A DNA stretch of 61,120 nucleotides, the filler included, from Hausera hauseri (Eukaryota): NCBI GenBank assembly GCA_046269625.1. It is 11 parts of 11 records of this genome, joined end to end, with 100 filler letters (N's around TTAATTAATTAA, not from the genome) between each part and the next. Parts side by side here need not be neighbours in the genome. Positions count along the whole stretch, not along the records: positions 26,306 to 34,860 come from JBJURY010602110.1; 10 more parts are not named here. One strand, written 5' to 3'. The translations under genes were made by a program, and so were the position numbers. Under the pieces are notes generated by a model that made no database searches, was not told the DNA's origin, and worked only from the letters and a program-made list of their open reading frames with translations. Below, piece after piece: positions 9,923-44,290 of this stretch (the first letter of the stretch is position 1; the number at the start of each line of letters is the position of its first letter).

Positions 9923-10340
9923 ACTTCAACATTGTTTATAGATGTAGATGCCACAGGTAGGTACATTGGATTATCGAGCTTGACAGTGACATTGTCGCCA
10001 GCAGTATACTTGCTGCTTTCTGGATAAATTGCGCGGAGTAGCGGTACACGTACTCCACCGACCAAAATCGGTTCGATGACGTTCACGTAAATGTACATTT
10101 GACTTATACCAGTTTTCAGTTTAGGTTTTAGTGTTGCAACATGTGCCGTCTTCGTATTTGATGCCTGAAACTGATGTTTTTCAAAACCCAATACCATGGC
10201 CAAAGCTTTGTCCAATGAAATGTTGACAATATCTTTAGTCAGTTCAAATTTAATGTACCCATTTGCATCTGACTTGAAGACTTTAAATATCTTCTTGTAC
10301 TTTTGATCTGAAGAAGTGTTGACAGAGATGTGCTACAGAT
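9923..10340 (-). CDS. Polinton/adintovirus minor capsid protein (penton-like), partial
   Basis: LAMVLGF...GISQMYIYVNVIEPILVGGVRVPLLRAI...VKLDNPMYLPVASTSINNVE fits the Polinton minor capsid pattern (lYvYxdivEpqlVGdxxvPLLRxv...fdnPxYvPv...IEI). The 3' end is cut by a linker and the 5' limit is approximate. Confidence 0.75.
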
Positions 10341-16163: not shown

Positions 16164-16870
16164 TGTCCAGCTCTGGAGATAAAGTTAGGAGCAGACTGCT
16201 CTATCTGACTGGGTTTTGAGCTTTCAGAAGGTTAAATTCATCTGAGAAACTGGTTTCTCGGGCCCTCTTAATGATAAGAACTTCTGCTTGACGGTAGTCC
16301 TCTATTTCTGCTACACAAGAGCCGACAAAAACTTTGAAGTGGCATGACTCTGATCGCAGCCAAGTCAGCACGGTTGTAGAGTCTGTCCACATTACAGTCT
16401 TCTCAATCTGCAATGTGAGTTCATTTTGAAGGAGCTTGGAAAGCTGTGCTCCTGTTAGTGCTGCGCACAGTTCCAGTCTTGGGATGGAGTGCAGGCATTT
16501 AGGAGCTACCCTGGAGCGTGCCATGACAAAGTCAACATGTACCTTTCCATCTTGTCCCAATGTCCTTAGGTATGCCACTGCATCGAAGACTTGCTCGAAT
16601 ATGTGAAACTCTCTCACTTTCACTCCAGTGTTCAGGCTTTCAGTGGGCAGATATGGTCGGGGTAAAAAGATCTCAAGAAGGAACTGGAGCTCCTCTTCCC
16701 AAAGACACCATTCCCGTAAGAGGTCAGGTGGAAGCTGGTGGTCATCCCAGGCTCTATTTTTGTCCCACAAACGTGTCACCAGCATTTTGGCTCTCGTTGT
16801 GTAAGGTAAGATGAGACCCAGTGGGTCGAACTGACTGGCGAGTACTTTATAAATGCTACGCATTGTAGGA
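16164..16870 (-). mobile_element. BEL/Pao LTR retrotransposon pol fragment (Pao peptidase A17/RNase H-like region), fish-like
   Basis: YKVLASQFDPLGLILPYTTRAK...WDD..., AVAYLR...FVMARSRVAPK..SIPRLELCAAL and WTDSTTVLTWL...FKVFV are hallmark BEL/Pao motifs. Confidence 0.9.
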
Positions 16871-16874
16871 GCAT

Positions 16875-19800
16875 GATGTATAAATATATATTTTGGGTGT
16901 TCTCTGATTTGTATTAATCTTTGTTAAATGTGTTTATCTCTTTGAAAGAAATGTTGTTCGCATCCCTGGAAGTCTGGGAGACATCCACACTGTTTTGAGA
17001 ACATGCCCTTGATAATGTCATACCCCCGGAATGCCTGGGAGCAGGATTTGGCCCATCTTGCTCACATGTGATCCATGCTTTGAATGATATAAAAGAGGAC
17101 GAGTCTGAGCTCCGAGCAGAGTCTGCTGAGGGTACGTACGGACGCCCAGCTAATTGATGCTTACTCTGATCGGACTGAAAGTCTCTCCAGTCCAGTGTCA
17201 CGGTGAGAGTAATCAATGATTTGTATCTGAAGCATCAATGTTGTTTGTGTGATGTGAATTGCTTGCTGTAATCTGTGGGGAATAAACTTGACACATTTGT
17301 TCTAGCAGTTACAGTGTATTAGAGCTTGCTGCTTGTTGTAATCTGTGGGGGATGAAGGACATAATCCTAGCAGAAAATACAGCCTGTGTGTGTTGTTTGT
17401 TCAGTTTTGCTGTTGTTCTGTTGTGGGATGAAGGATATAAATCCCAGCAGAAAATACGGCCTGTGTTGGTTTGTTTGTTTGTTTGTTTATTTTAGCTTGT
17501 GAGTGTTGTTCTTTTACATTGTGCTGACTTTCTTCCGAATCTGCATAGGAAAAAACAAGTAACAGGAAAGGAAGAAGAGACACCGGTTGTAGGTGGAAAA
17601 GTTAAGATTGTGCCGGGATGGGAAAATCCCTGTTATCAGTGTTATTAGTCAATAGTGCTTAGTTTAAGGGACGGGCCACTGCAGGCAGGGGCTGATAATC
17701 CGTCCACTCTGTTAGAGGTCTTGGAATCAGCTGAGGTGAAAAAGAGAACTCCTGTTGACGATCTTCAGAGGCACAAGTGGGTCTGTGCCGTTGCTTGCCG
17801 AAGACAGTATGAAAAAAAAATCAATCAACAGACTCAGACAGAAGCTTTAAGAAAAAAAAAGGTACTAGAAGAAGCTGAGCTAGTTTTTTTAGTACGTCAG
17901 CATGTGAAACTGTTGACCGCACAGTTAGAAAACATGACTCGAGTCACTGAAGGAGCAGTGGCTCAAGTGTGCTTGTTGAAAAGACAGAAAAAGAGAAAGA
18001 AAAAACGTGAGGTATCTCCCAGATGAGTGTGTGCTTTCGTTTCTGAACTCCCAGCGGGGTGGAACCCTCCCCGCTGGGACGGTGAGGATGACAGCACCTG
18101 CTGAAAAGCAGGAGAAAGAGAGCGGAGGGAGTGGAGAACCTTTTTCTTATTCTTAGTTTTATTTATGGTGACAGAACTGATTGGGTGTTGGTTATTTGGT
18201 GTTATTTATTGTTTTTTAAACTAGCGGAGGCTCTGACATGGTAAAAATATTGAAATTGAAGTTTTGGAAGAAATCAGAAAAACTTGAAGAAGAAGCAGTA
18301 AGATTGCTCTGTGCGTCCATGTGCCTGCGGGGTGATGGGAATTATGGATGGTCCGTGCAAGTTGACATGTATGTAATTGTATAGATCTGTAATGTTGACT
18401 GTGATGTTGGGTGCTCAAGAGGTTACCGCAGTCAGATTATGGAGTTTGGGACGTTGGGGGATTGGAGTTCAGGAAAAGTAGAAAAACAAGACTAGGGTTC
18501 TCAACATGTGGGTCGTGGGCCAAAAAGGGACGGCCAAAATAACACACAGGGACCCACTTGCTCTGCTTTATGGAGAGTTTTAATACAGTCTAGGGACCCA
18601 CCATCTGAAATAGATGGGTGACCAATAGAAGAGTTAAGAAAACAATGTTAGAAAAAGGGATTAAAGGTCCAGTGTGGTAGATTTGACATGGGAAATTTGA
18701 CTCAAGCATTAAGAGATGTTTTTTTTTTTTTTTTCAAATAGAAAGACTGCTCGAGTGGTTGAAGTTTCTGATTTTGAGTCCTCTGAGGGGGAAGAAGTTG
18801 TGAGAATGAAAACAGTGAAGCAGAAGGAAAAAAAAGGGAGAAATAAAGAGAGAAAATCAAAACTGTACACTGATTTATCAGACCTGCTGAATTTTGAATA
18901 GGAAACAGGGCAAGCCCCATAAATAAGACACTGGGGCTGAGGCCACACTTATTCATGGCAACCCAAACAAAATTAAAGGACCTGTGGTTCCACTCTCAGG
19001 TTTGGGGGGGAAATATGATTTTTGGAAAAAAGGAACAGTACCCTTTAAAAAAAAATTGGAAATGCGGCCATTAAAATTTTTAAGTTTTGGTAACTAATGA
19101 ATATTGGGCCACTATTAAAGATTATGTGGATGCTGGAGTACTTAAAACATGTACTACAGCCTGGAATACTTATTAGTAAATGTTACCTCAGAGAAAACTA
19201 ACCAAATTTTTCTCTTCTGTGAAAAGTCCTTTGTTTATTTTCAGAATTAATGTTTCCTTGGTATCCATTGGTGGGGAGACCAGGGGTAACCAGACAACAA
19301 CAGGACCAGCCATGGGCGTCGCCCAGAGGGTTGTGCTGGATCTGGGGCCATCACGTTCCTTGTCATTGGTGCCATGGTGCTGCTGAACAACCTCTCCTCC
19401 CAACCCCGAGACGTGTCCTGAGAGTAGAGGGACCTCTCGTGCCAGGAGTGAGGTGGAGGGATGCCACGCACCGCAGCAAGATGACTACGTATGTCCAGCA
19501 CACCAACCTTGTGTGGTGGCCAACATGACCAGCGATTGCCCCTTTTTACTCCTGTGATGGATGTCGCAGGGGACACGAGGTTTCAGTGCTGGTAACGGGA
19601 TGTGTGATCTCCATCAAGGCTCTTTTGAATGTGTGCCAGCTGCGATCATTCAAAAGTAAGACATGGATCGAAGGAAGTAATCAACAGGTTCTGCATGTGA
19701 GAATGCAGATGGAAAGTTTCCAAAGGGGGGTGACCACTCATAACCATCGTGAGTGGCGAAGATTGTGGAACATCCATTGGTTAACGTTAACATCTGAAAT

Positions 19801-21193
19801 AATGAAATGGTGAGGACAATGTTGTCTAATACTGGACAGCATGCTTCACTGGCTGTTCATCAAGTTGTACTTTGGATGCCCTCCTCAGTAGCTACACAGA
19901 CTGAAACTGCTGATATTTTTTGGAAAGAGATAAACTGGCAAACAAAAATGTGGGGCGCTACAGAAAAGCTGCTCGTCAACATCACAAATGCTTTGAATTG
20001 GACTACGTGTAACTTGCAGGTGTTACATGTAAAAATGCAAATGGAACGGTTCCAGAGAGTGATGACCACTCATAATCCTCATGAGTGGAAACGGTTGTGG
20101 AACATTTCTAATGATCAATGGTTATCCTTAAAACCTGAAATGACAAAATGTAATGATCAAGCTTGTGAAGGTCATTATGTTCAACATCAAGTTAGCGATG
20201 TTATTACTGTGTGTCGTTATCATGTGCTGCCTGTGATAACAATTACAGGATTTTGGTTTTTGAAACTTCAAGGGAATTGGTTTGACCCCAAAACCAATCT
20301 GACCTATGATTTGCAACTGTGCGAGACTGCTGATAAAGGTATGGTATGTATGTTACAGACAGGTTTTGTTAATCCATGCTTAACCAGAGACAAGGTGTTG
20401 TGTGAGTGGACCTTTGAACAACCTAGAGACATGCTATGGCAGATTGGCCCACATACTCTGTGCGTAGCTACCATTAATAGCCATCCTCAACTACCTAAGG
20501 CTCCTTTTTCTGGGTGTCTGTATGATGTTCACATGTGGCATTGGAACAACCTGACCTATCAATTGACTAATTTTTCCTCTGATTCTCGCCTGACACAGGT
20601 ACAATGGAACGTTCTCCGGGTACCTTGGCGAGTCTCTCTTGATCGTTTCAGAGGCGCCCTGAATCAGTCAAGAGAGCTAAAGAAAATAATTGAATCTCAT
20701 AGGTCTAATGTGTCTGATCTCACGGTGTCCACATACGTCACACAGGGGGAGGTGTTGCATGCTGCAAACCTTATTCAACAAGATTCTGCTAATCACTGGT
20801 GGAATATTTTTTCTGGTATGAGTTCAACAGTGAGACAATATTTTGTACCACCCTTACTTGCTTTGTTTATTTGCTTTATCATTTTAGCTTTAATTAATGT
20901 GTGCACTTGTCTTTACATACGTAAAATAAATAAGTCAATGAATAAGAAACTTTATAACGCTGCCCTAAGATGAAGGTGACATTAAAAATCAGAAATGAAC
21001 TAAGTAACCCTTGGAGAGTGTTTGGAACTATGTACATATATGTTTAACCCTGATTGTCCTTTGTGGTGGGATCATGTTGATGGTAATGGGTTTATTAATT
21101 AATCATAGCCCATAGGAAGAAAATAAATATGTTCTTTAATTAATGTACATTTAAATAAATATGTTCTTTGATTAATGTCATGTTGATGGTATT
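16875..21193 (+). mobile_element. Defective endogenous retrovirus-like element (gag relic, short pol relic, env), probably teleost
   Basis: Leader with tandem repeats at ~17230-17480. Gag-like relic at ~17600-18090 ending VCAFVSELPAGWNPPRWDG, similar to class III gag WDPxxWDG. RT-start relic DYVDAGVLKTCTTAWNT at ~19120-19170. Env ORF downstream. LTR limits not resolved. Confidence 0.65.
19807..20973 (+). CDS. Envelope/fusion glycoprotein, C-terminal 388 aa
   Basis: Several NxS/T sequons (NIT, NWT, NIS, NLT, NFS, NQS, NVS), a Cys-rich ectodomain, a heptad-like region, HWWNIFSGMS, a TM helix (LLALFICFIILALINVCTCLYI) and a short basic tail. The 5' part (~19230-19806) is disrupted and contains a partial duplicate. 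Confidence 0.75.
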   Translation: MVRTMLSNTGQHASLAVHQVVLWMPSSVATQTETADIFWKEINWQTKMWGATEKLLVNITNALNWTTCNLQVLHVKMQMERFQRVMTTHNPHEWKRLWNISNDQWLSLKPEMTKCNDQACEGHYVQHQVSDVITVCRYHVLPVITITGFWFLKLQGNWFDPKTNLTYDLQLCETADKGMVCMLQTGFVNPCLTRDKVLCEWTFEQPRDMLWQIGPHTLCVATINSHPQLPKAPFSGCLYDVHMWHWNNLTYQLTNFSSDSRLTQVQWNVLRVPWRVSLDRFRGALNQSRELKKIIESHRSNVSDLTVSTYVTQGEVLHAANLIQQDSANHWWNIFSGMSSTVRQYFVPPLLALFICFIILALINVCTCLYIRKINKSMNKKLYNAALR

Positions 21194-21293: not shown

Positions 21294-23051
21294 AGTTCGT
21301 CATTGGATGGTTTAGTGAAGCATCTCCCTGCAGAAGACTCAAGGAGACGAAACGGTTCTTCCCCACTGCATTTGACCTCGTCAAGAGGAAAGGCGTGTTT
21401 CCTTATGACTACTCAACCTCATGTGAAACACTGGATAAGACCTCATTGCCGGAGAAGAAGGAATTTTACAGTATTCTCTCTGATTGCGATATCAGTGATG
21501 CTGACTACCAGCATGCCCAGAATGTCTGGCATTATTCCAATGCCGAACATTAGGGGAATACAACGACATATACTCAAGGCGGACGTGCTGCTGCTCACAG
21601 ATATCTTTGAGAGTTTCAGGGATGTCACAATGAAGAGCCATGCATTGGATCCGGCTCATTTCTTTACAGCTCCAGGGATGAGCTGGGCAGCAATGATGAG
21701 ATATACCGGCATAAGGCTGCAGATCATTAAGGATTACGACATCATCCTTATGATCGAGAGAGGCATTAGAGGTGGAATATGCCAGGCCATTCACTGGTAT
21801 AGCGAGGCCAACAACAAGTATATGGCCCAGTATGATGCATCCTAGGAATCCTCATATATCATACCTGAATGCCGACAACTTGTATGGATATGCAATGAGC
21901 GCCCCATAGCCGTATGATAACTTCAAAAGGGTCGAAAATCCTGAAAAATCCCTATATCGGACCTGGATCCCACTGGAGATACGGGATACATACTGGAGGT
22001 GAATATGGAATATCCTGCTCCCATCCACGCAAGGCATCAACAACTGCCTTTCTTCCCTGAAAGCAGGCCTCCGCCCCACGGAAAGCAGAGAAAGCTACTC
22101 TGTCATCTGGGTAATAGGGAGAGGTATGTAGTTCACTACATCAATCTCCAGTAGGCACTTAGGAATAGACTTTGTATTATCAAGATCCATAAAGCCCTCC
22201 AGTTCAGCCAGTCCATGCGGCTGCAGCCTTACATAGATCGCAATACCAAGCTGTGGACAAATGCCAAGAACGATTTTGAGAAGGACCAGTTCAAGCTTTA
22301 CAACAACTCGGTCTTTGGCAAGACCATGAAGAATATCCGGAACAGGATGAACATCGAACTGGTATGTGACTGGAAGCGAGCAAAGAAGCTTATTTCCTAG
22401 CCTCACTTACACAGCAGCATCATACATGCTGAGAACTTGGTCAACATCCATATGCTAAAAACGTCCTTTGTATTCAACAAGCCCATATGTATGGGTATTT
22501 CAATCCTCGACATGTCAAAGACCCTGATGTATCATTTCCACTAAGACATCACGGTCCCCAAGTTCAAGTCCATGCAGCTGATGTATATGAATACTAATAG
22601 TTTCATCTATGAGATCCATACAGAGGACATTTATGAGGACTTTGCCCAGTTAGCAGAGCATATGGATACCTCGGACTATCCGAAGGATCATCCGATCTAT
22701 TCAAGTGTCAACAAAAAGGTCCTAGGGAAATTCAAAGACGAGGTGAAATGGCCAATAATTTCGAGATTTGTGGCTCTCAGGTCTAAAATGTATGCTCTAG
22801 ACGTATGTGGATAAGTAAAGAAGCGGGCAAAAGGGGTTCAAAGGGCTACATTGGCCAAGATCAGTTTTCAAGATTATGTGACAGTTCTGCAAGAACAGAC
22901 TCACATTATATTGGAAATGAAAAGGATCCAATCTAGGGATCATAACATCCAAACTGTTACCTTACAGAAAAGCCTAGATTGGATGGACGACAAGAGACAG
23001 ATCCTGAGCGATGGAATCAACACAGTACCTCATGGACATGTGGCATTGTAA
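21294..23051 (+). pseudogene. Polinton-type pPolB, family B copy 1 (C-terminal half, decayed)
   Basis: LKADVLLLTDIFESFR, IERGIRGGICQ, YLNADNLYGYAM (motif A), FKLYNNSVFGKTM (motif B), LMYMNTNSFIY (motif C relic), NKKVLGKFKDE, LRSKMY and DDKR..DGINTVPHGH. Confidence 0.9.
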
Positions 23052-23239
23052 ATATTGTTAATCTTTTGTTTAATAAACGTTGTATAAAATATCGTGTTGT
23101 CTTCTTGATCAAGTAATGTGGGATATAGGATAAGGCCAAGTAAAACTAAGTAAGTACTATATAGGATAAGGCCAACAAATTTCACAACAAATTTATTTCA
23201 TAACAATATAACTTTGGCATAACGCTAAACACTTTCATA

Positions 23240-23557
23240 GTGTGTGTGTATTTAAATGTGGGTAAAATGAAGTAACTTGAGAAATGAATTGGCTATAATA
23301 TATCTTCTAAGTGAGTTTGTGTGCGTATGTTTGTGTGAGTAAAGGCGAATGACTTGAGAAATAAATTATTAAGATATATGGTGTGCATGCGCATGTCTGT
23401 GCTTGTAAAATATAAGTAACCTGAGAAAAGGTATAGCTTAGATATAAAGTATGCTTGTCTATGCATATAAATTGCTCCTAACTTGGGAAAATTTATATTT
23501 CATATTTATATATCTGTTCGCGGCAATGAGATTTTCGCCCCCTACCACTCAGAGACT
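23240..23557 (+). repeat. Subterminal degenerate tandem repeats and possible element end
   Basis: Four copies of an AxTAAC(T/C)TG(A/G)GAAA-like core spaced ~65-75 bp apart, then ...TTTTCGCCCCCTACCACTCAGAGACT directly abutting the truncated family B copy 2. Confidence 0.4.
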
Positions 23558-26205
23558 AGTACGATGTTGATCCTCTTGCGGATATTCTCCATGGTCTTTC
23601 AAACAAAGCTGTTGTTATAAAGCTTGAATTGGTCCTCCTCAAAGTCGTTATTTACATTTGTCCATAACTTTGTTTTGAGGTCTTTGTAGGGCTGCAGCTA
23701 ATTGGACTGGCTGAACTGCAGGGCCCGATAAATCTTAGTAATGAGGAGTCCATCACTGACCGCCTGATGGAGATTTCTCTAGTGAACAACATACCTATCC
23801 CTACTATCCAGATGGCAGAGCAGCTTTCTATGCTCTCCATTGGGCAGAGGCTTGCGCTCGGAGAGGAAAGGCAGCTGTTGATGCATTGTGTGGATAGAAG
23901 CCGGATATTCCATATCTACCACTAGTATGTATCCCCTATCTCCAGTGGGATCTAGGTCTAGTATAGGGATGTTTGCAGGATGCTTGACTTACTTGAAGTT
24001 ATCATATGGAAATTGGACGCTCATTTTCCGTCCATGCAAGTTGTTGACATTCAGGTATGATATATATGATGATTCCTTAGATGGATCATAGTGGGCAATA
24101 TACTTGTTGTTGGCCTTGCTATACTGGTGGATGGCCTGGCATATTCCGCCTCTAATGCCTCTCTCAATCATGAGGATAATGTCGTAATCCTTTATTATCT
24201 GCAGATGAACACCTGTATATCTCAGCATAGCTGCTAAACTCATCTTTAAAGCCGTAAAGAAATGAGCGGGGTCCAAATCATAGTTCTTTATCGTAACATC
24301 CCTAAAACTCTCAAAGACATACATCAGAAGCAGCACGTCCGTTTTGATGTATATGGCGCTGTATTCTCCTAATGTTCGGCATTGGAATGCATGCCAGACG
24401 TTCTGAGCATAGTGGTAGTCCATATCACTGATATCGCAATCAGATAAGATATTGTAAAAGTCCTTCTTGGCCGGCATTGAGGTCTCATCCAGTGTTTTCC
24501 ATGAAATTATATAGTCATAGGGAAACACGCCTTTCCACTTGACGAGGTCAAATGCAGTGTGAAAGAACCTCCTCGTGTCCTTAAGTTCTCTGCAGGGAGA
24601 TTCTTCACTAAACTGTCAGGTGAAGACGACATGAAACAAAAACTGTCTACGAAGCGAAGCGTGATTTTTCCAACATGTTTGGTAAAAGTGATGTACTTTT
24701 CCTCACTATTAGGGATCACCTCAATGTTTCTTTTAATGCTGCCCAGGTCCCGAACAATGAAATGGAAATCATAGCCGCTGAGATTATGGAACACTACAGG
24801 CACATATGTACATGTTTTTCAGTGTAGATTGCACTTGTTGAATGCCGCTCCCCGATATGTGTCTGTAAAATGTCAATGATCCCTTACTTTATAATGATCC
24901 TTAGTGAATGATTTGGAGCACAAGTAATATGGTGTTGCCTTGCGCCATTCCTCATCTTGCTACTTCGACAAGTTCATGTCGTCCTTATGCTGCTGCTGCA
25001 TATCTCCAATCCTATGAGTTATATCTTTACGTCGTTTCGTGAAATATGCTGTTGCGCCTCGACCTCTGAATAGATATGGTTTACTGTCCAGTCCTTTGAC
25101 ATACATGCAATATGATGAAAGTTCATTATATTGGTATGCCGTTATGCTGCTATGTTGGGGATTAGGACTTCAACTTTAAACTGGGCACAGAATAGCCTCA
25201 AAGTCGCAATAGATAACTATTGGGACCTTGATCTTCTTCTCGAACTCCTTGAATTCAATGTAGTTCTCCTAGGGAAATTCTGGCCTGATACAATACTTTT
25301 TGTTGCAGTACATCGTGTGCTATTTCAGTTTCAATGCAGCTACATCGCCGCTGAAATGGGACAAGCATCGTTTACATATTTCTATTTGTTCATGATGTTT
25401 CATAATTTGTGATCTGTCTAGCCGCTCAAAGTCTTTGATCTAAACATAATGTTTCTTTTTGCCATTGTCTAGTAGGAGCAGATCGCTATGATCTTCCAAT
25501 TCAGCATCGCATATCTGCAGGTGATAGAATTTATCATCCTCATCCAATCCCTAGATATTGAAGGACACGTTATTGACTTTTCCGAATTTTTTAATTTCTT
25601 CTACGGATGGAGGGAAATTGATACATTAGAAGTCATAGTTGTGCTACACATCCTTATATAGCCAAACTCGTGAAGCATTATTTTGATCCGTTACGAGTTT
25701 TGATAGAATGGCAAACATGAAACACATGTTGTCGTTATTATGTACATTGACACATGCTTTTGTATTACCGATCCAATCAGGGAGCTCAATATATGAACTG
25801 CACCACATGGGAGAGTACTTGTCAACATACACAATCAATCTCTTAATGGTGGCCAGAGACCTTCCACTCTTCTTATCCTAACTCTCCCCGGCTTCACAGA
25901 TTAGCTTCTCGTGCGCCTCTTGCATCCATTCTACAATACTGATGTTTTCCAAAATGGGTTTATTTTTGATCTTGAAGGCCCCATTGGATTCTTTGCCATC
26001 AAAATTGATGTATGTGGCTTCCACTTTTATATTCACCTTAAGGGCTTTGAGTTCAGCCATGTTGTACTGAATAATCCCCTCTGTCTCGTCCTTTGTGTAT
26101 AAGAGGAAGTCTTGGAGGGTTGTTTGACCAGTTGCCTCAATAACATATCTGCGGCATTTTCTCTTTAATGCTGCCGCATCAACTGGCCGCTGTCTTTGGC
26201 TTTTT
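23555..26205 (-). pseudogene. Polinton-type pPolB, family B copy 2 (N-terminal TP/vOTU-like region through motif B, decayed)
   Basis: SSYIELPDWI..KACVNVHNNDNMCFMFAIL, KKHYV, CKRCL..F, PVVFHNLSGYDFHFIV, RFVDSF, FPYDY, KTDVLLLMYVFESFR, GIRGGICQ and YLNVNNLHG. Truncated just after motif B. Confidence 0.9.
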
Positions 26206-26379
26206 NNNNNNNNNNNNNNNNNNNNNNNNNNNNNNNNNNNNNNNNNNNNTTAATTAATTAANNNNNNNNNNNNNNNNNNNNNNNNNNNNNNNNNNNNNNN
26301 NNNNNTTTGCCACCTATTTGGTAGGTTTACGTTTTACAATTGATTTCTGGAAATTATCCATTTTGTTTCACTATTACTA

Positions 26380-27033
26380 TCATATCGATTTCCGAATTTG
26401 TTTATAGACATACACAGCTTTCGGATTGAAAATGTCTGTTCGTACGCGCATGTCATTTGGACACTATTGTGTAAAGTCAATGAACAGATATCCGTGCGGC
26501 TTGCACGTAGCTTCATGGTATGCGTCTATCAAGTAGGTCCGGTTGCGAGGAAATGCTTGTCTAGCACTATAATCTATGATAGTCTGTTCAATGGGATTTT
26601 TGAACAACACCACATAATGTACGTTTAGATTTCTCTGATGGAACACCCTGATGGAACATGTTTTGCGTAATGAAAGTCACAGTCACACCACAGTGTGGTG
26701 AAATCTTCGCAAATAGATTGTTGAAGTCGGTTTGTTTCGCGGCTTCCTGGAATAAATCATCACTGACAATAACGTCACTGCTGCGTAATAATCTGGACCA
26801 GTTGTCATTAAACCCATCAATTACCGTTATAGATTTTAATTTACAAAATCCCTGTTGTGTAAGACCGGATTCTCCATCATCATCACCATCGATACCCTGA
26901 TGCCAGTAAATGTGATTGAACCGCGGCGATTGCAATATGTCACTGTAGTTTCGCAATAGTTTACACACAAATGTGTTTTATCACTTCCACTGGGGCCTAC
27001 AATTTGAAAAATCGCCTTATTCTGCATATTCAT
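26380..27033 (-). pseudogene. Polinton packaging ATPase (A32/FtsK-HerA-like), decayed
   Basis: Walker A IVGPSGS[D]KT, Walker B DVIVSDDL, LFAKISPHCGVTVTFITQNMF, LNVHYVVLFKNP, ARQAFP, AYHEATCKPHGYLFIDF and RVRTDIF. Frameshifts and a stop are present. Confidence 0.9.
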
Positions 27034-27092
27034 GTTAATAATAATAAAACACCTTTTGTCACATGTTTTTGTTTTTATTCACGCCACACACA

Positions 27093-27100
27093 TATATAAA
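27093..27100 (+). promoter_or_regulatory. TATA box in the divergent ATPase/TBP-like promoter
   Basis: TATATAAA about 30 nt upstream of ATG 27130, in the ~95-bp gap between the two divergent genes. Confidence 0.45.
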
Positions 27101-27129
27101 TATTGCTACAGTATGAACACGTTTCCATA

Positions 27130-27590
27130 ATGTTAGCCAATATCAACTATCGCGGATATGTTACATATTGAATTGACGCATTACCATTTAATCAATTGAA
27201 ACCGAGGCAGTATGTACACACATGTCCACCAGATTTTACGTGCATCATATTTCAGTCGGACAAGTGTCATATTGTGGGTTGTCGCAAACCAGCCAAAGCT
27301 AAAAACAGTAAACAACAACTACCATTCAAAATTGTCATTGCTCGAATTCAGTAAATAATGGTAACGACTCAGTTAGATTTCTTGTCAATCAACCTGTACA
27401 AATTGGCAATGGTTACCAAGTGCATTTATGAGCCCGAACTGTTTCCCGCAATGAAATTAACAGTCTCGTCCACTTTGTGTCAATGCGATTAGCAGTGTAT
27501 AAATTGTCATACTCGGTATTCCGACAATGGACTATGAAACGACAGTTAATAAAAATAAAAATCATGTAAATGCTTTAGTGAATCAAAATA
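27130..27590 (+). pseudogene. TATA-binding-protein-like (two TBP repeats), element-encoded, decayed
   Basis: One frame from ATG 27130 reads MLANINYRG...KPRQYVHTCPPDFTCIIFQSDKCHIVGCRKP...RIQ*IMVTTQLDFLSINLYKLA...IYEPELFPAMKL. After a frameshift it reads RPLCVNAISSV*IVILGI. These match TBP repeat 1 (TALIFxSGKxVxTG) and repeat 2 (YEPELFPGL...IFxSGKVVLTG). Not in the ORF track. Confidence 0.75.
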
Positions 27591-27604
27591 ATGTACTCTA
27601 CACA

Positions 27605-27843
27605 ATGAGTTATAAATACCACTCTCACGTTCGTTCGAACATTTCTATGGAAAATGGCGATAAAACGATATTACTTAATGGTGGCAGTGAACAAGATCAG
27701 AGTTCATATTGGTCATGGTTGTCTGGTGACAAGAAGGACAATATGGAAGTTCTGGAACCGAAAACAGAACTTGTCCAGCAATCAGTAACAGAATCGTTGA
27801 TAAAACAGCACGTGGGAATGATTGGTAGTGGAGTAATACGTAA
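27605..27843 (+). pseudogene. Truncated orphan ORF with LNGG and MIGSG motifs
   Basis: MSYKYHSHVRSN...ILLNGGSEQ...VGMIGSGVI, then fused directly to the cut 3' end of pPolB copy A2. Confidence 0.35.
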
Positions 27844-30800
27844 ACCCACTTACGCTTATCATCATTGCATGATAAAGCGACTTTTGTATTGGTCACCGTA
27901 TGCACCTGGTGCTCAGTTGATCTGATGATCGTTTCAAACACAACAGCCTTTGATTGTCCTTTTCCGTCTTCTACTTCATAGACACGGCAATGATCACCGT
28001 GGTTTATTTCCGCATGAGTCAACTAAACTTCTTTTTCGCGAATTTTCGGTCCACAGTCAGTTAAAAGGTTATAAAATTTTGGCCGCAGAAATATGCATTC
28101 CCAATACTGAACCCGACTTTCGCTTTCATCCTTGAAACAGCCGATTTTGTTTGTAATGGCATTGCTGTACGATGAATGATTCTGCAGGTAGTTTGACGTG
28201 TCCATTAAACCGTCTGCAATCATTTTTCGTAGCAGTTCTTCGCGATTGACATTTTCCAGTTCCAAGAAACACCTATCTGTGTTACCGGCAATTATATTGA
28301 TCCTGTACCCTCCAAACATTTTCCGGTAACGTGCCAAATCGCGATACTGCAACTCATACATATAACTTGGCCGGTACAGTACGACTTCTTCCTAGTGTAA
28401 AAGCACGGCAACTAATCCATCTGCAATGTGCATTGATCTCCTGAACTGCGCCTTGCTCATGTACGCGACCAACTGCTTTTCGTTATTGCATAAGAGTACA
28501 TAGAGCCGCTTTTTCAAATTCTCTACTCTTTTTCCGTACTGAGAATTGTTTTTCAGTTTGTAAGAGTCCTTTGCAAACTTTGTATAAGCTGCAGCTCGTT
28601 TTCCGAATACCCTCTGATGCACACCTTGAATATCGGAGCATGTGCGAATCGGAATGCGCGATGTACTTGTGCGGAACGTACACCCAACTGCATGTAAAAT
28701 TGCAACAAACGACAATGAAGTATGTAATTCTGCTTAAGTTTATGCGTCATAAGCATCTTCGTCACCTTCGACCCCGGCGGACATGGGCTAATTGATGCTA
28801 CTGGTAATTCGTCTAGAAAGTCATTCAGCTCATCTGGTGCCACGAGATCGACTTCCATCAGGTATCCGACTGAGCTGTTTTCTGTTGTGTCTGCTCTTGA
28901 AAAATTTTCCAGTATTGTGTCCTGGTCCTGTTTGTCGACTATCCATTCGAATGAATCGTACGACAAGGGTTGCGAAAGCGCCAAGCCGTATAGGTTATTA
29001 ATGTTGATATACAACAGTGATGTGGTATCATCAATGGTAGCAGCAACAGCATTAGCATGGCGCTTGTTGACAAATGACATGCCGCCACGAATACCAACAT
29101 CAAACATTCGTACATTTCCGGGTTTTGCAATAACTCGATATCCCGATCCAGTGGCACCAGAGCTGATGCCAAACTCATTCCAGCTATTGAGTAAACGTTT
29201 AGTGACTGCAGCCTATCTTCTGCAAACGCTTTAGCTCGAAATGTCTAAAACAGATCGGCTAATAAGTATACGTCCAGTTTCAGATACTGAAGCATGTAGT
29301 CCAAAAGGTTTCTGCAGCCGATTTCTGTCCAAAACGACCGTGCTTTGTAATATTTTTTTCTATTATACCGATCCATTTCGGTGGTAATTAGTCTGTCGTC
29401 TGCAGCCGCTAGTACGATATCGCAAAGTCATATGGGAATATGCCTTTTTCTACTTTCAATATGTGTAGAGAACTGCGGCAATGTTAGCGCACATGTAGTA
29501 AGGCTTTGCCATAGATTCATTGAGAAATTGCAATGAATCAAAAAAGCGTACCTGGAACCGGTTTATATGAGCAGACAAGGACAGATAGTTCTCCATCGTA
29601 GTCGGAACGACAGACAGTTCCCAATGAGGAAATCCGTTAATGGCCCATTTTAAAATATGGTGACAATCATAGCGACAGAAGTTACGAAAGATAAACGGTA
29701 GGAATAGCCTCACACGCCTTATCAAATTGCATGAATTGCATGGTGCTCGCAAGTATCAACCGGTAAGGTGATGATGATCCGGTACGAGCCACTCCTTTGT
29801 ATCAAACGGTAATATTTTGTGACACAGGTAATACTTCCGTTTCTACTATTTTTTCCAACTGCTACAGGAAATCGTGCATGCAGGTTCAACCGTGAAAAAT
29901 GTAGTACTGCGGTTGGTGAGTTGCTTTTATTGGGACCACAACATATCGACAGTGATTGGAACGTGTTTTTGATCGAATACATTGTGCCGTGGTAGAACGG
30001 CTTTGATACCTGGATATACCACGTATGCCGGACTGTCAAGCTTTGACCAGTCACTGAATCTCAGCTCCTTTTGACTGGCATGACGTACATTATTTTTTCC
30101 GATGAATTTTTTCTGCATAGTGTCGCATGTTTCGTCCATATTGTTTCGACCAGAATCCATGCAGATATATAGGTCACCATTTATACCATATTTGTTTTTT
30201 GATGAACTGGTCATGGTCCATATTAAATAGTCTGTCCAAATTTGTCACGGCCATATAATGGAATTTTTCCTCCTACCTTTGCTCTAACATCAACAAATTT
30301 ACCGGGCGTCCATTTGAGTTCCAACATCTACAGATTATGCCCACGTGAGTGTTCTTGTAAATCTCTTCGTCTGCCGGTATTTCTACAATTATATTGCACC
30401 GGAACACGTTGATTGACAGTGTTGAATTACGCCGTTCAAACGTCGGGATGGTTTTTAGTTTCATCGGCATCCACTATTCATCAAAGTCCAATTTGGAAAA
30501 GTACTGCCAATATTGATTTGGATGATTTGCATGATCTGTGTCTACTTGGTCATATTTTAATACGGCCAAAATAGTGTAAAGAAAACGGTATTCATCATTA
30601 TTATTTTTTACATTCACTACCGCACCAAACTGCTTTAAAGCGTCAGGTGTTGGTATAAATGATCGTCCAGATAAGTAAATTATATCACTCGGCTTTGTAA
30701 TGATAAAGGCGAGAGTGACAAGTTTTACAATTCGCCAATCACTACCCTTTTCGGTATAGTTGGCGATTTTTTCATGCAGCTTTTCTCCTACATCGGCAAG

Positions 30801-31652
30801 AAAATCGTCGGAATACGGTTCGGCTCGATGTGACAAGTACCATTGTTTTCTATCACCTTCAAAATTTTCAAATTCTGCCAGTGCATAATACTGCACTTTG
30901 CAGTGATGGTAGTGGTGGTTGTAGTGAAATTTCTTCATTTCTGATCGAACCGGTTGTGTACACTCTACGGCACATTCTTTAATTGCATTGTTGCTTTCGA
31001 CAACATGTCCACTTTAATGTCCACATATGGTCTGTTTAGATCGTACTTGACAGTTATGGGAAGGACAGGTTTATGCTGCTGCTGTTGCTCCTGTTGCTGA
31101 TACCGTTGTTGTGTTTGCTGTTGTTTTGTATGTTTTCGTCAAGCCTTGTAGATGCTTGACGTTTTCTTTTTGTTGATGGAATGTTACTTGTTGAGGGATG
31201 CTTTTTTCGGCTGCGACCATCATTATTTGCTTTTTGGACCACTGAAATTTGTTCAAGTGGTCCTCGTGCTGTTTATAAAATTGTTCATAGTTGATATGCG
31301 CTTTAACTGTAGAACATCCGGGAGAAACTTAGGCCCGTTTACCGTGTACCGTTGTGGTGCTAGAGTACTGCTCCAATAAACTATGGCATCCTTCAACGTC
31401 ATGTATTCTACTATTACAGTAGCGTGGATACGTGAGGCAGTGCACAATCATCATCTACTTAGACAGCGTTAACGGACCAAGATGATCCTTGTGCATTTCA
31501 TAAAAGTCGGGGTATAAACAGAGGGTTGGAATATTACATGTCGGACACAATTATGTGTCCCTGCCCGCTGCGTATTATTTCACCATCTGTTTATGGCACT
31601 GATCTGCCTCATGTCTGGGCAAAACGCAATACATTGGATATTCATTGCATTT
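27844..31652 (-). pseudogene. Polinton-type pPolB, family A copy 2, with N-terminal Cys/His modules
   Basis: KVQYYALAEFEN..KQWYLSHRA, EKGSDWRI, GRSFIPTP..VVNVKN..Y(C)FLYTIL, APCNSCNL, GIRGGMSF, LLYININNLYG, YKLKNNSQYGK, IIAGNTD and IGCFKDE. Ends at DDKRKWV. Confidence 0.9.
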
Positions 31653-31832
31653 CTAAATGAAATAAATTAACACTTGTTAAATTTAATTTAAAAATAAAAT
31701 AAATTCAGGTAAATACAGAAAAATAAATAAAAGTGTAACTTGTTTCCTTCATTAATAGACTACAACATATTTAATTTATGCATCTATAAACATCGCAGCA
31801 GTACTACTGCTAATATTAAAGCTACGGATCAA

Positions 31833-32109
31833 ATGGAACAGTACATTAAAAGTGAGATTGAGAAATTGACCGATGACATAATCACTGGACACGTATTTCA
31901 TGTTGAATTTTTATTTGAACTTGCAGAAAGGAGAATAATAAACAGGTAAGAATATATTTAATTAAGTCAGATCTCTCTTCCTAAAACGTATCAAAAATGA
32001 ATTGAAACGAAAACGGCAACAACGACAGTGGATTAATTTCCTCCTCATTGAACTTGTATTTTCTGCTTCGCTTTGTGTTATAATGAAAAAGTTGATTGAC
32101 CGTATTTAA
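31833..32109 (+). pseudogene. Family-A ~92-aa ORF with C-terminal transmembrane helix, decayed copy
   Basis: MEQYIKSEIEKLTDDIITGHVFHVEFL...INR*... then LVFSASLCVIMKKLIDRI*. Homologous to 35747-36022 and 56990-57271. Confidence 0.7.
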
Positions 32110-32251
32110 TCACATTTGTACATTAGACATGGATATTATTTTGTTATATGTTTGTTGCATTTGTTTTTGTAAATCGATATCATTTATTCACTATGTCTTT
32201 ATTACATTTCAGTATAAACACTTGTGCTTCTTTACTGCGTGACATTACTAC

Positions 32252-32671
32252 ATGTCTCATTTATCGAAACTCCTTCGTTTATACTACTCCTTCGATGGTC
32301 TCCGGAGTCACCTTTAAAATCTCGATTGACCTTTACATGATGCACGATGCTTTTCTCCCGAAGAGATACTCCTGCATGCTGAGGAGAATCGGAGGGTACG
32401 AGAATATCATCTACGACATACGAAGCAGCATTTTGGTGACATGGATATGATATTCGGCCACATGTTTCGCATTTGGTAGAAATTGGCGGATTATTATGCG
32501 TTGGATGACAATCCACATCAAATACGTTTTGTGGAGGATTTTGTTAAAGGCGATCAGATTGGTGATTACATTCCAACGTGGCAGTCAGCGGATCGGATTT
32601 GTTTCAAGCAACATTGCAATGTAACTAATTCCGATTGACTCGTTCATTCTCCTACGGAATTGGTTAACTAA
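32252..32671 (+). pseudogene. Family-A orphan ORF ('MSHL', ~125-139 aa), with stops
   Basis: TATAAA at 32213, then MSHLSKLLRLYYSFDGLRSHL*NLD*PLHDARCFSPEEILLHAEENRRVREYHLRHTKQHFGDMDMIFG... It aligns codon-for-codon with 56882-56611 (minus). Confidence 0.65.
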
Positions 32672-33208
32672 TGTGGTTTGTGTGCTCCTAACATTTATTA
32701 AAAACGATTTAATTTTTGGTATTGTTGTTGTTGTTGCTGTACAAAACAAAGGGAACTAAATGTTCGATTCAGATTGGACTTGTCGATATACCTGATTGTT
32801 ATAGCCAGCCAGACAGGTATGGTCCGACTATGAGTCATTAATAAAAATTAATAATAAAAAGAAAAATTATTAAAATATTAAAATTAATAATAAAATAGTA
32901 TAAAAAATTGTTAAGACAAAAAAAACTAACATTCACTGGGTGATCCATCTTCGGTTGTCGCAAATTTTCGAAATGACGATAAACTAAGTGACATGGAATT
33001 TTATGTATGTGTGTGTGTAGTGGTCACATTTTATTGACAAACATTGTTGATTTTGAAAACACTGCTTCCAAAAAACAACAGTCTCGACTTCAAATCCAAT
33101 ATTTCAGGATTGAACTTTAGAGTAAATAGCGAACAAATCATGAGAAATAATATATTTTCATTAATATGAGCTTCACAATATCTCTGTTACACATTTGGTG
33201 GTGGTAAG

Positions 33209-33314
33209 ATTTTTCCCAACTCAACTCGTTGCGGTGAGTCCGAATATGCAGGTGTCCGGAACTGGATCAGTCCAAAATTTTTCCGACTCAACTCGTTGCG
33301 GTGAGTCTGAATAT
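33209..33314 (+). repeat. Two ~38-bp direct repeats, each with an internal ACTCA...TGAGT inverted pair
   Basis: ATTTTTCC(C)(A/G)ACTCAACTCGTTGCGGTGAGTC(C/T)GAATAT at 33209-33247 and 33277-33314. Confidence 0.8.
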
Positions 33315-34579
33315 TCTCGTGGTAATTTGTGCGATCGGTTTTAAATGTCGTCGTCGTTGTACAAAATAAAATTCACCATTTTACGACGATGACATTTTAA
33401 CAATGCGTTTTTCGATATCATTTTTCACCCGGATCCGTTGGTATGATCGCGAGGAGGTTATAATATGAAATTTTCCCAAACTTATGGGCAATGTACGAGA
33501 CCCATTTCCATCACCGGCAGACTTGAACATGGGGAAATTTTACCCGACGGAAATTTTCCCAACCTGTTTTCCCCATGTTCCCTTGGTCGGACGACGACGA
33601 AACCGTGTCCATTCGACTTGTCAACATCAATTTTACCTCTGTACAAAATTTCGGTATGCCAGCAACATGTGTTGCGTTGCCAGTTGCACATTGACCGTTT
33701 TTCTTCTTCCGCCTCCTGTGCCGCCGGGTTACATTTTCCGGCTTCGCGTCGCTGTTAACTTTTGTTCGACTTGTCCGTCTCGACCGATTGGTCTTGGTTC
33801 AAAGTTCATTGCTCGACCTTCTTCTTTCCCTGGGGAGGGGGTCTCTGACCTCGAGACATGAAATGCTCAGAATTGCGAGATATGTGGGGAAAACTAGGTC
33901 CGAGGTCGATCTGAACACTTTTGGGAAAGTGGGGTGGAGCCCACACTTCTATCTACTTACATGGCAAACAGAAAATCTTCGTGAAGAAATAAGTTAATTT
34001 CGACCAAATGATGTTTTTAATGTAAATGAAACTAATCACTAATATAAAACTAATTCAACACCAATAAAACATTACCATTTAAAGATGGACGCTGTATAAC
34101 ATGAAAAAGCAAAGATCGCACAATCATTCTTATTGTCACTATTACGATTGTGTCTGGAAAATTGTTTTTGATAATTATCGATAAAATATGTTACAAAATG
34201 CTACATAATTTCGCACTTGTCCAATTTTTTCCCACATACACAGAAATTTTGAAATTTTATAAAATTTTCCTTTCATTTTTTAAGCCCTTATTTTACTAAA
34301 GTCGGATTTCTAATTTGTCGTTCATGTTATATCCGTCTATAATGTATTCGTCTAATTATCATTCACGTCAACAAATATTTTTCCTTCTATACAATTATTT
34401 GCTTTACACATAATCGATTGCACATTATAAGCCAAATATTAGACAGATATTTATTATGTTACCAAAACATCAAAAAACACAATTAGTCAAATTTTAGTGA
34501 TCGAAAAATGGCAAAAATGTTGCTAATTCATAAAATTCTTCCGCATGTTAGGAGGAAAATTGAAAATGTGCAAAATTAT

Positions 34580-34860
34580 CAGTGGTTCTCAACCTTTTTT
34601 GTCGCGAACCCTTTTGGCTGCCAATTATTGGTTGTAACATAAATTCGTTCGTATTTTTATCATTTATTCAATTAAATACAATACATGAATGGGTGAAAAC
34701 TGGTTTTATGTGTTTGTTTTAGTTTGTTGTTACTAGTTGTGGTGTACAATTGTGTATAAAATATTAGTGCATAACTTAGTAAATTTAGTTATTTAGTTTG
34801 CGACTTAGCATGATATGAATAAGAAAAATTGGAATTTTGAGCATATTATGTTTGTTAGGA
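34580..34860 (+). mobile_element. hAT (Charlie/Buster-type) transposon end, cut by linker
   Basis: CAGTGGTTCTCAACCTTTTT is a typical hAT-Charlie terminal inverted repeat start. The partner end is not in the contig. Confidence 0.55.
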
Positions 34861-40277: not shown

Positions 40278-40736
40278 TCATAGTAAACTTCCCATTTTCC
40301 ATATTGTGGATTTGACGCCGCTGCTTTTCTTCAATCCTTTGAGCTTCAGTGCCAGGTAGCCTTTAGCTCCTTCCGGTTGCAAAACAGTTTCTGCTGTTTC
40401 TCCGCCATGTGATCTGACAATTTTTGCCATATTTTCTTTGAAAAAAATAGACGATGTATCTCGGATATCGTTACTCAACACCAAATCACTGTCAACTTTT
40501 CTAATCGTATCTTCCATTGTATCCAGATCATCATCGCTGATCTTTTTCAACAATAGACCATATTTTACCGGTTTGATTCTGACCGTTTGCGTAAATGGCG
40601 ATTGAATAGCGTTGCCCAGATAATGTAAGTTGTATCCATTATACAACCGGGAATTTCTGAGCGAATATTCTATGTACCGTGGCTTTTTTGACAAACTCGC
40701 GGAACTGTCACATGCTGAATTGTTTTCCAAAGACAT
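40278..40736 (-). CDS. Family-A conserved 152-aa ORF ('MSLENN', putative OB-fold/SSB), copy 2
   Basis: Essentially intact ORF convergent with pPolB. TATAAATA lies ~40 nt upstream (minus strand ~40775-40782). NLS-like SKKPR near the N-terminus. Confidence 0.8.
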   Translation of the reverse strand: MSLENNSACDSSASLSKKPRYIEYSLRNSRLYNGYNLHYLGNAIQSPFTQTVRIKPVKYGLLLKKISDDDLDTMEDTIRKVDSDLVLSNDIRDTSSIFFKENMAKIVRSHGGETAETVLQPEGAKGYLALKLKGLKKSSGVKSTIWKMGSLL

Positions 40737-41649: not shown

Positions 41650-44290
41650 TTTTTCGAGGTGGAAAATGGGGCTCGACTATGGCCCGCCGCGGCGGCGGCG
41701 GACGCCCGGCCGTGCCCAACCAAATAGGCCAGAGGGCGCCGGCCGTTGTGGGAACCACATCACCCTCCCCGTGGCAAAGTAAAACTATAAAAGTTAAAAG
41801 CGACAGAGAGTAAAAACCGCAAAACGAAAAAGTGTCTATGTCAGTCGGTCAGTGTGGCAAGACGTTAGGTGCCTTATAGTGATTTTTTCCTGCTATACTT
41901 GCTGAATGTGACTCTGCGTGTTTTGTCTTTATGCTGTGTGCTTGTTTGCAGAGGTTGAAATTGTGGAAAAATTGTCGGATGTTATGGTGAGTGTTATGTC
42001 GTGCAAAGACGAATCAGAATGAAGAGAAGAAGAAGGTGAAGGAGAAAAAACGTTTGTTGAAGACGGATGGTTAAAGGTATTCAAGAAAGTGTTGGAAGAT
42101 GGAGTGATGATAAAAGGTGTAGTGGCGGATAAAGGAAGAGAAAGAGAAGTTGGAGTAGAGGTTGGAATTGAATTGTTTGAGAATGGAAGTAAAAGATGAA
42201 ACTGAAGTAGTGGTTGAGAGAGGACAGGGCAAAGAGGTACAAAATGGAAGAAAACAAGAAGATGGAGAAGAGAAAGGAGAGTAGTTGGAAAGTTGTATGC
42301 AAGAGATTTGAATCATGAAATGGATGGATGGAGAGATTGGTGAAGTCGAAATGGTGTTTGGTGGAGGAAGTATTACAAAAGGCGAAGGCAGGTTATTATA
42401 AGGGGGTGAAAGAGGTGTGAGAAGGCTTGAAGGTGCAGAATCGAGTGCGAAGAAAGAGGCTGAATTGTGAGAAGAAATTGAAGTGGAAGTTTTGGAAAAA
42501 ACCTAGGGGAAAGTGGATTAAGACATTGAGCAGAGATGGAAAGTGAATTGTTGGATTGCTGCGCATCGTAAAAAGATGTTGGTGGAGAAGTGACTTCGAT
42601 GGGAGACGTATCATCAATGAAGAAGGCAGGCTTAGCGTTGTTGATGTAAACTGCTACTTCTTTGTCGTCTTTGAGAATGATGATGTTGTGGGAGTGTAGG
42701 CGAATTACTTTGTAAGTGCCAAAATACTGAGGACAAAAACCACACGGTGTCTGATTCTTTAACCAAACGAACTTGGCAGTATATAAATCGTCGGGTATGT
42801 AGGGTTTATTTGCGTGTAACAATCTGCAAAATGAGTCTTTGCTGATCTCAACGTAGTGTCTCTGTGCCGCTTGTATGGTTTCGTCTGTAGGAGTATTGTC
42901 CAGCTCAGTCAGCTCGAATAATGATTTGATATATGTGCCAAATAATTCTTCTGCAGGTGAACAGCCTGTAGAAGTAGATGGTGTGTTCCGCCAACCAAGC
43001 AGAACGTACGGAAGGGGTGTAGTCCAACTGCGATTGGACTAAGCAAAGATTTTAAGAGACGTTTTCATCGTTCGGTGAAATTGTTCGAGAAGGCCATTCG
43101 ATTGGGGATGATGTGGTGACATGTGAATGTGGTTAATTCCCAATCGATTGACAAGAGCTTTAAAGAAGTTGGATTCGAACTGTGGACCTTGGTCCGAAAT
43201 GATGTGGCGAGGTGATCCAAACCTGCTGACCCAAGCTCGGATGAAAACGTCTGTGATGGTTTCTGTGTTGGTGCTCCAAAGCGGGACGGCCTCTGGCCAT
43301 CGAGGGGAACGGTCCATCATTGTGAGGATGAAGTGATGGCCCTTGTCTAAGGGTAATGGGCCTACAATGTCAATGTGAACAGATTCAAAACGAGACGTGC
43401 AGGGAATATGATATAGCGGTGGCTTTAGGTGTTTAGTAACTTTGTATTTTTGGCATGCCACACACTGCCTAACCCATGCCTGCACGTCAGAGCGCATCGA
43501 CAGCCATACTACTTGGCATTGTAAAAGGCCAAAAGTGGCCTTGGCACCGGGATGGTGCAACGAATGGATGCTGTTGAATGCTTCTTTTTGAAGCAATTTA
43601 GAAAGGATGACTTTAGGATTATTAGGTTTGGAAGTGTCGAAGGCCAGACCGTGGATGGTTTTGCACGATTTGAAAGATTTCAGGATGTCAGGAGGTGGCT
43701 GGTTTTGCTGAAGTTTGGATTGAGTAAAAACTGGTGTGAAATCAATCGAGTTGACTGATCGGGACAAAAAGTCAGCTACTAAATTGTCGACTCCGTTTAG
43801 GTGCTGGATTACAAAATTAAATGTGGACAAATACGATATTTGCCTCTCCTGACGTGGAGAAGGCGATTTCATAATGAGAATTTGGAGCAAGGGCTTGTGG
43901 TCCGTTTGTATGGTAAAAGTTCGTGCATTTAGTATGTTTAAAGTGTTCTACAGCAAGGATCATTGCAAGCAACTCTTGGTCAAAGCTGGAATATCTTTGC
44001 TCTTGTGCTGTGAATTTTCGAGAAAAGAATTCGAATGGCTCATGTGATCCATTTTTGACTTGATGGAGGACAGCAGCTGCAGGTGTTGTGGATGCGTCCG
44101 TGGTTAAGAAGAGTTCTGCATGGGAGTGTGGATAGGCCAGGATTTCTACGGTTTTTAAATTGTCTTTGAGGTGATCGAAAGCGTTGACTAGCTTCGCAGA
44201 CCACTTCTGACACCAATTGTTATTTTCTCCATAAACTTGTGAAACCTCAGACACAGTTGTCCCTTGCAAAAAACTTCTGGTAAAGTTCAC
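41650..44290 (-). mobile_element. Ty3/Gypsy (CsRn1-like) element: RNase H, integrase, 3' UTR, PPT and start of 3' LTR
   Basis: LTTDASTTPAAAVLHQ..FFSRK..YSSFDQELLA; SPRQERQISYLSTF..DNLVADFLSR; HSLHHPG..CVACQ; RFESVHIDIVGPLP..RWPEAVPL..SDQGPQFES..HPQSNGLLEQFHR. PPT GGGGAGGGTGA (41770-41760) is followed by TGTGG at 41759. Confidence 0.9.

Follow-up and report, generated by a model that had tools for sequence, protein, structure and literature searches.

A short TATA-binding protein gene in a Polinton clade and a TATAAAC box before its virion genes suggest a candidate late-transcription switch

A broken gene with the TATA-binding protein (TBP) fold in DNA of Hausera hauseri belongs to a family of short TBPs carried by Polintons, and in the same clade a seven-base box, TATAAAC, stands before the virion and packaging genes. 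From the residues that the family has kept and replaced and from the placement of the box, we think that the intact protein is probably a late-gene specificity factor that binds TATAAAC and recruits host TFIIB and RNA polymerase II. What links gene and box is their co-occurrence within one clade. The wider reading is that a widespread Polinton clade runs its own early-to-late switch with a single stripped TBP, its DNA face re-specified for TATAAAC, its TFIIB handle kept and its repressor handles deleted, and that TBP was captured at least twice; we regard this as evenly balanced between true and false.

The window analyzed here (61,120 nt) strings together contigs that are unrelated to one another, with an artificial linker, N44-TTAATTAATTAA-N44, between them, and the TBP gene's own contig covers positions 26306-34860 only (Table 1). 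As the first-pass annotation had described, the TBP frame is interrupted by three stops, which lie at 27169-71 (TGA), 27352-54 (TAA) and 27500-02 (TAA), and by a single frameshift near 27460-27467, and the peptides quoted there are present in it. The start of the gene was also placed correctly, 96 bp from the ATPase ATG (about 95 bp had been given), but the proposed end at 27590 falls short of the one indicated by homology. When the 116-aa first piece was scored against PF00352 (Pfam) with X at the stops, it reached 29.8 bits (E 5e-7), above the curated cut-off of 22.9 bits, and all four matches at E<=10 in a PDB sequence search with the broken piece were TBPs. Together with the saddle predicted for an intact relative, this bears out the TBP fold. 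The copy in the window is dead. It has drifted at some positions that are invariant in the short family and still carries the TFIIB glutamate pair, and a family-profile search found no second TBP in the window. One contig of the public run X1 is identical to 27184-27530 and spans three of the four breaks, though X1 may be the window's own source. At a likeness of at least 80%, 14,983 X1 contigs fall on the element, and 22-59 differing contigs cover the listed places in the TBP gene, which marks the element as a high-copy family carrying the gene.

On this contig the TBP gene is accompanied by a packaging ATPase and by pPolB, both broken. The presence of pPolB had been noted before, but its "family A" label does not stand, the polymerase being a protein-primed member of family B; a paralogue elsewhere in the window matches PF03175. 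Integrase, protease and capsid genes are known from related loci; the TBP contig ends after the ATPase and contains at most one element end, and no long inverted repeat was found within 26306-34860. Two further pPolB remnants at 21294-26205, mutually inverted and 80% identical, belong to a subfamily different from that of the TBP contig's pPolB. We also noted an open 92-codon frame at 27647-27925 (+), without a family match, which lies behind a TATAAAT at 27613 and overlaps the pPolB 3' end.

Table 1. Features of the TBP contig, of a second window contig and of one control locus. Positions count along the window unless a locus is named.
Feature	Position	Strand	Remark
TATAAAC near penton-like gene 3' end	9934..9940	-	another window contig; same arrangement in related elements
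Broken A32-like packaging ATPase	26398..27033	-	ATG at 27033; divergent from TBP gene; upstream TATAAAC not intact in window copy
TATAAAC in final ATPase codons	26400..26406	-	predicted promoter of next gene; likewise in 12/12 related ATPase genes with a match
Canonical TATA-like box TATATAAATA	27093..27102	+	37 nt before TBP ATG; predicted early-type promoter, from sequence and class pattern
Broken short TBP-fold gene	27130..27616	+	start ATG 27130; 3' end (about 27616) by homology
Broken pPolB, protein-primed family B	27843..~30900	-	same contig as TBP gene
TATAAAC	31785..31791	+	48 nt before small conserved Polinton gene (cluster C10)
Piece of small conserved gene C10	31833..31970	+	C10 adjoins TBP in related elements
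TATAAAC	32213..32219	+	33 nt before ATG of short frame without family assignment
Near-canonical 185-aa TBP	L062:11565-12122	-	four Phe and glutamate pair; PF00352 124.7 bits

Intact relatives of the gene were found. An initial search returned five among six candidates, 145-160 aa long and 39-69% identical. With a family profile we obtained 2496 matches among 6035 candidates; the best 120 of the 2496 are 131-192 aa long and at least 44% identical to one intact relative, P0004, giving a family of at least 120 clusters, and an Atlas search with P0004 led to TBP clusters. Scanning of metagenome contigs yielded 60 loci (L001-L060) from 96 pattern matches, 58 of which hold the family ORF; because many loci stem from few related samples, counts over them are not independent. 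By hand count, 22 of the 60 loci contain at least one Polinton hallmark gene, and those without one are mostly short contigs with shared accessory genes. The hallmark genes comprise ATPase (15 loci), integrase and major capsid (8 each), a penton-like gene (7), an adenain-like protease (6) and pPolB (3, namely L008, L030 and L032; it was also found in the control locus L061). Proteins of related loci matched PF04665 (ATPase), rve and Peptidase_C5, and their capsid has the double jelly-roll fold (fold match E 5e-14). The head-to-head placement of TBP and ATPase described in the first-pass annotation is not conserved, as it was seen directly in none of the 15 related loci holding both genes; the two share a strand in 13 and lie on opposite strands with genes between them in two, and the position of the TBP gene varies among related elements. 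Neither the loci examined nor the viral-contig scans contained a same-clade Polinton lacking the TBP gene. Repeated scans of viral contigs gave no Polinton or TBP family member; the sole hit, L065, has a long frame that looks phage-portal-like by eye. Cargo genes beside related elements encode a ubiquitin-conjugating enzyme (L030:222-719), a RING finger (L045:1710-2171), a leucine-rich repeat (L032:1918-3330), which sits behind a TATAAAC late box, and a C2H2 zinc finger (L050:273-1016).

Over 79 pairs of intact TBP copies the median dN/dS was 0.23 (range 0.05-0.49), and the ATPase gave 0.10 over 7 pairs; judged from these sequence comparisons, the intact TBP relatives are under purifying selection. 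Compared with an intact short relative, the window gene shows 68% identity (155 columns), as against only 29% (86 columns) with a canonical eukaryotic TBP. A quick tree of 53 rows grouped it with P0003 and P0004 (99 SH-aLRT) inside the short family and set this family apart from cellular-type TBPs (99). Both trees are quick trees with a single eukaryotic TBP of the canonical kind as reference and without any verified TBP from a giant virus; the final tree leaves out L065 and a long branch, P0236.

An AF2 model of P0004 (pLDDT 89; two of five models confident) predicts the full ten-strand, two-lobed saddle that is shared by eukaryotic TBP/TRF and archaeal TBP (PF00352), with no helix in the N-lobe and none before residue 84. 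The model aligned with human TBP at VIA Z 13.3 and rmsd 2.2 over 143 residues, compared with Z 6.5 for the next unrelated row, and structure-alignment identity to cellular TBPs was 20-26%. Unlike these proteins, the short Polinton form of about 150 aa appears from the model to lack the N-lobe helices H1 and H2 with their basic regulator patch, and its N-lobe spacer has 21 residues rather than 33.

The DNA-intercalating Phe and the TFIIB contacts, to which the first-pass annotation had pointed, are largely kept. Our residue table classed 211 of 255 rows, 171 as short and 40 as long, the remainder being without anchor columns; the long class was set by spacer length and takes in some short-clade members with loop insertions. 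Aligned against a canonical TBP and given in yeast TBP numbering, the 171 short forms retain, as in cellular TBP, the first Asn (N69, 97%), three of the four DNA-wedging Phe (F116, 99%; F190, 99%; F207, 100%), the Pro after the third Phe (P191, 90%) and both TFIIB-binding glutamates (E186, 95%; E188, 98%). The first intercalating Phe is replaced by Pro (F99 to P) in 97% of the short and 98% of the long forms. In contrast to the cellular proteins, the DNA face is polar with fixed replacements, namely V71 to N (94%), V122 to R (99%), T124 to M (100%), N159 to S (94%), I194 to R (92%) and L205 to N (99%). The 40 longer forms carry the same P, R, M and N at 98-100%, and one of them, in L056, adjoins a Polinton ATPase, which makes it likely that the helices were lost after the DNA face had been remodeled.

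To describe the promoters, we used de-duplicated 90-nt windows upstream of genes and took expectations from dinucleotide shuffles. TATAAAC was present in 41 of 69 windows before virion and packaging genes (1.8 in shuffles; 0 antisense) and in 3 of 82 windows of the other group (TBP, putative single-strand-binding genes and others; 2.0 in shuffles), this late/early grouping having been set partly after the upstream sequences were viewed. For the subset defined a priori (ATPase, major capsid, penton and protease) the count was 20/30 within 90 nt. By gene, the box preceded ATPase in 10/12, major capsid in 6/7, penton in 2/7 and protease in 2/4 cases, as well as several small genes, and TBP in 1/38; intergenic copies lie mostly at -32 to -39. 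Canonical TATA boxes occur in 44 of the 82 windows of the TBP-containing group, vs 22.7 in shuffles, and in this group TCAYT often immediately precedes the ATG. The P191 position showed no covariation with the box's first base. Thirteen of 38 TBP genes of L001-L060 have a TGTTTT[AC] stretch some 50 nt ahead of the ATG, which often replaces a TATA box. The reverse complement of this stretch is similar to the late box, and it may act as a further early element or as a site of autoregulation.

Where genes overlap, TATAAAC lies within the coding part of the upstream gene, and there it can fall into one or the other of two frames. Ile-Asn is written ATA AAC in 24/36 cases near gene ends vs 11/67 elsewhere, and Tyr-Lys uses box-matching codons in 15/22 vs 3/52; judging by this codon usage, the box in coding ends is held at the DNA level and restricts codon choice. 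The motif YK[QPH] falls within the last 40 residues of 114/120 ATPase homologues vs 2/484 background windows. Presence of the box tracks the downstream gene. After the TBP gene it was found at 6/6 junctions when ATPase, C16 or C27 comes next and at 0/11 when C10, C11 or C14 does, and it was absent before the TBP gene (0/22), from nuclease-to-TBP junctions (0/9) and from convergent TBP/C9 junctions (0/7), which argues against a poly(A) signal; two convergent junctions have a box with no gene identified downstream. In the window's lineage the box also stands before C10, at identical spacing in two paralogous window contigs (36071 and 57318, both on the minus strand), vs 0/4 related loci. The window contigs retain it at the ATPase end (26406), at the penton end (9940) and before three copies of C10; in front of the ATPase it is not kept.

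Scanning genome contigs for the ATPase provided four loci (L061-L064), one of which, L061, was chosen without regard to TBP. It is a near-whole Polinton of the same clade, with an intact 150-aa mini-TBP (PF00352, 40.6 bits) between protease and nuclease, and the box stands before 7/7 of its virion, packaging and integrase genes; ten sites are on one strand and none on the other (shuffle mean 1.6). Polinton L062, with the other pPolB type (PF03175-strong), has the box before 1/7 genes, and its TBP grouped with cellular-type TBPs in the quick tree. Its partial relative L064 has the box before 0/5 genes; L063, an ATPase fragment only, was left out of the counts. Beyond the loci found through TBP, the gene-box pairing has one positive control and two negative ones, a small number, the negatives differing in pPolB type as well. 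That L062 has a different TBP and lacks the box suggests that Polintons captured TBP on a second occasion. L061-L064 were filed inside bacterial metagenome-assembled genomes, almost surely through eukaryotic contamination of the bins.

In the mechanism that we favor, the TBP gene would be an early gene, served by host TFIID at an ordinary TATA promoter (27093 in the window), and its product would bind TATAAAC ahead of the genes for packaging, capsid, protease and integrase. The lobe most altered in the Polinton protein corresponds to that with which cellular TBP contacts the 3' half of the box, the half containing the C. Host TFIIB would then be recruited via the kept glutamate pair, followed by RNA polymerase II, and the loss of the N-lobe helices would permit escape from control by TFIIA, TAF1, Mot1 and Brf. 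We infer a timing in which the virion genes would be switched on late.

These assignments draw on known TBPs. According to the available text of Ravarani et al. (PMC7221094), the C-lobe glutamate pair binds TFIIB/Brf, and an N-lobe basic patch, with three of its positions on helix H2, binds TFIIA, TAF1, Mot1 and Brf; most viral TBPs show poor conservation of the glutamates and are accompanied by a TFIIB of their own. Giant-virus (Nucleocytoviricota) TBP-like proteins share with the Polinton form a virus-encoded TBP fold (24 BFVD matches, E<=0.001) and, in the same partial text, loss of the N-lobe regulator patch, but the Polinton protein keeps the glutamates, and none of the 53 locus proteins scanned matched a TFIIB or RNA polymerase family. 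Similar in its proposed action is the beta/gammaherpesvirus vTBP (KSHV ORF24, EBV BcRF1, CMV UL87), a viral TBP mimic whose polar face acts on a non-canonical late-gene box, TATTWAA in the case of ORF24, as set out in the available part of PMC12529657; for the Polinton protein the pairing with its box is one of co-occurrence. The same source describes ORF24 as keeping four Phe, lacking the TFIIB glutamates, having its own N-terminal Pol II-binding domain and needing five partner proteins, whereas the Polinton protein is a bare core of about 150 aa that keeps the glutamates. BcRF1 was a weak fold match (TMq 0.33), a likeness that does not show sequence kinship. The Polinton protein is thus neither a canonical TBP nor a member of the ORF24 family, although by analogy it may work like ORF24.

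Of the two functions named in the first-pass annotation, a basal transcription factor or a decoy of host TBP/TFIID, we prefer the first, since the virion genes carry a non-canonical box to match it. A transcriptional role could also be a more general one, in which host TBP/TFIID reads TATAAAC well enough and the element's protein, a TBP substitute or booster, does no more than sustain transcription from all promoters of the element while host TBP is scarce or under repression. TATAAAC is one base from the canonical box, and wild-type plant TBP has been crystallized on a C(-25) variant (1qn3), so that host TBP can bind a TATAAAC-like box; the kept TFIIB glutamates and the near-canonical TBP without the box in a second Polinton lineage would fit as well. 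Such a role is nevertheless unlikely in our view, as polar residues fixed on the DNA face throughout the family would be difficult to account for if specificity had not changed, and the box is nearly absent from the TBP gene and its early-type neighbors.

A decoy would sequester host TFIIB or block host TATA promoters to dampen host transcription, with the box read by something else. A kept TFIIB stirrup combined with a lost TFIIA/TAF surface would suit such a dominant-negative protein, but early-type genes of the element itself have canonical TATA boxes and would suffer too, and a TFIIB decoy needs no invariant remodeled DNA face; we consider it improbable. We give the same low weight to the view that the box serves some other factor, a host Forkhead protein for instance, or is a poly(A) signal, its pairing with the TBP gene reflecting no more than common ancestry. 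The Forkhead consensus is RYAAAYA, which ATAAACA, the commonest form (45/69), fits, and many boxes do lie at the 3' ends of upstream genes. However, GTAAACA and antisense ATAAACA were each seen in 0/69 windows and ATAAACG in 8, and this strict orientation and choice of bases argue against a Forkhead site; the position is tight, and the box follows the downstream gene rather than the upstream end. Lastly, the intronless and broken state of the gene might suggest a single processed pseudogene, derived from host TBP and lodged in a Polinton by chance, an outcome that the first-pass annotation had named as one that would refute its reading. This origin is refuted by the intact relatives amid Polinton genes under selection, the identities and tree grouping, and the many differing X1 contigs over the gene, all of which assign it to the Polinton lineage.

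The first-pass annotation had also held that the standard Polinton core lacks a TBP. A label "TBP" in a Polinton-like virus is already in print. It appears in the map of a MELD virus, an element with adintovirus-like PolB, in the Fig. 5 legend of Starrett et al. (PMC8502044; preprint 10.1101/697771); our comparison is with that legend entry, the available text discussing no promoter or function, and no TBP details were found in the supplementary file. According to the part of PMC11131425 available, a subgroup of polintoviruses bears VLTF3, whose gene has kinship with a late transcription factor of viruses; its protein family differs from that of the Polinton TBP. We found no description of the Polinton TBP family or the TATAAAC box in the searchable literature, a scope that leaves subscription papers, Repbase and bioRxiv supplements aside, nor by term search in the available text of PMC11131425, PMC11161782, 10.64898/2026.10.13.758929 and 10.1101/2023.08.22.554363.

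If the wider reading of an early-to-late switch is true, it would be direct sequence evidence for an autonomous nuclear virus cycle of Polintons, and it bears on how the expression of capsid genes is timed in Polintons and on whether a helper virus is needed for this. To our knowledge, it would then be the smallest viral late-transcription system. The seven-base box could serve as a marker for late genes and for expressed copies in RNA data. As a natural minimal TBP, the protein would let one ask whether TFIIB can be recruited and start sites chosen in the absence of the N-lobe helices used by TFIIA, TAF1, Mot1 and Brf, and protein and box might serve as an orthogonal TBP-box pair.

Several minor observations concern other genes. 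The commonest TBP neighbors in the loci are small proteins of clusters C1, C9 and C14, and mutually related proteins of this kind are encoded in the window at 11799-12158 (+), 40293-40730 (-) and 51877-52167 (+). The last residue of the acidic C9 tail is aromatic, and these proteins are possibly single-strand DNA-binding proteins, for which there is a weak lead; an Atlas search with C9 gave leads, all <0.9, towards giant-virus proteins, with one cluster 12% Pox_I3. Some C1 and C11 genes look intron-split, with GT...AG ahead of the called ATG. Elsewhere in the window, an unbroken 824-codon frame at 7114-9588 (+) best matched RNA polymerase III RPC2 (E 7e-160) and lies beside a Cse1-like frame (5570-6421) on a separate contig that is probably host. 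A higher-GC contig holds a Pao/BEL peptidase frame at 16201-16923 (-) and, at 19798-20973 (+), an intact 391-codon frame that by eye is envelope-like with a C-terminal hydrophobic stretch and has no Pfam match. Other contigs contain Gypsy-like integrase/RNase H remnants (42373-44320, -), a protein kinase frame (45278-45856, -) and a fatty acyl-CoA reductase-like frame (47180-48106, -).
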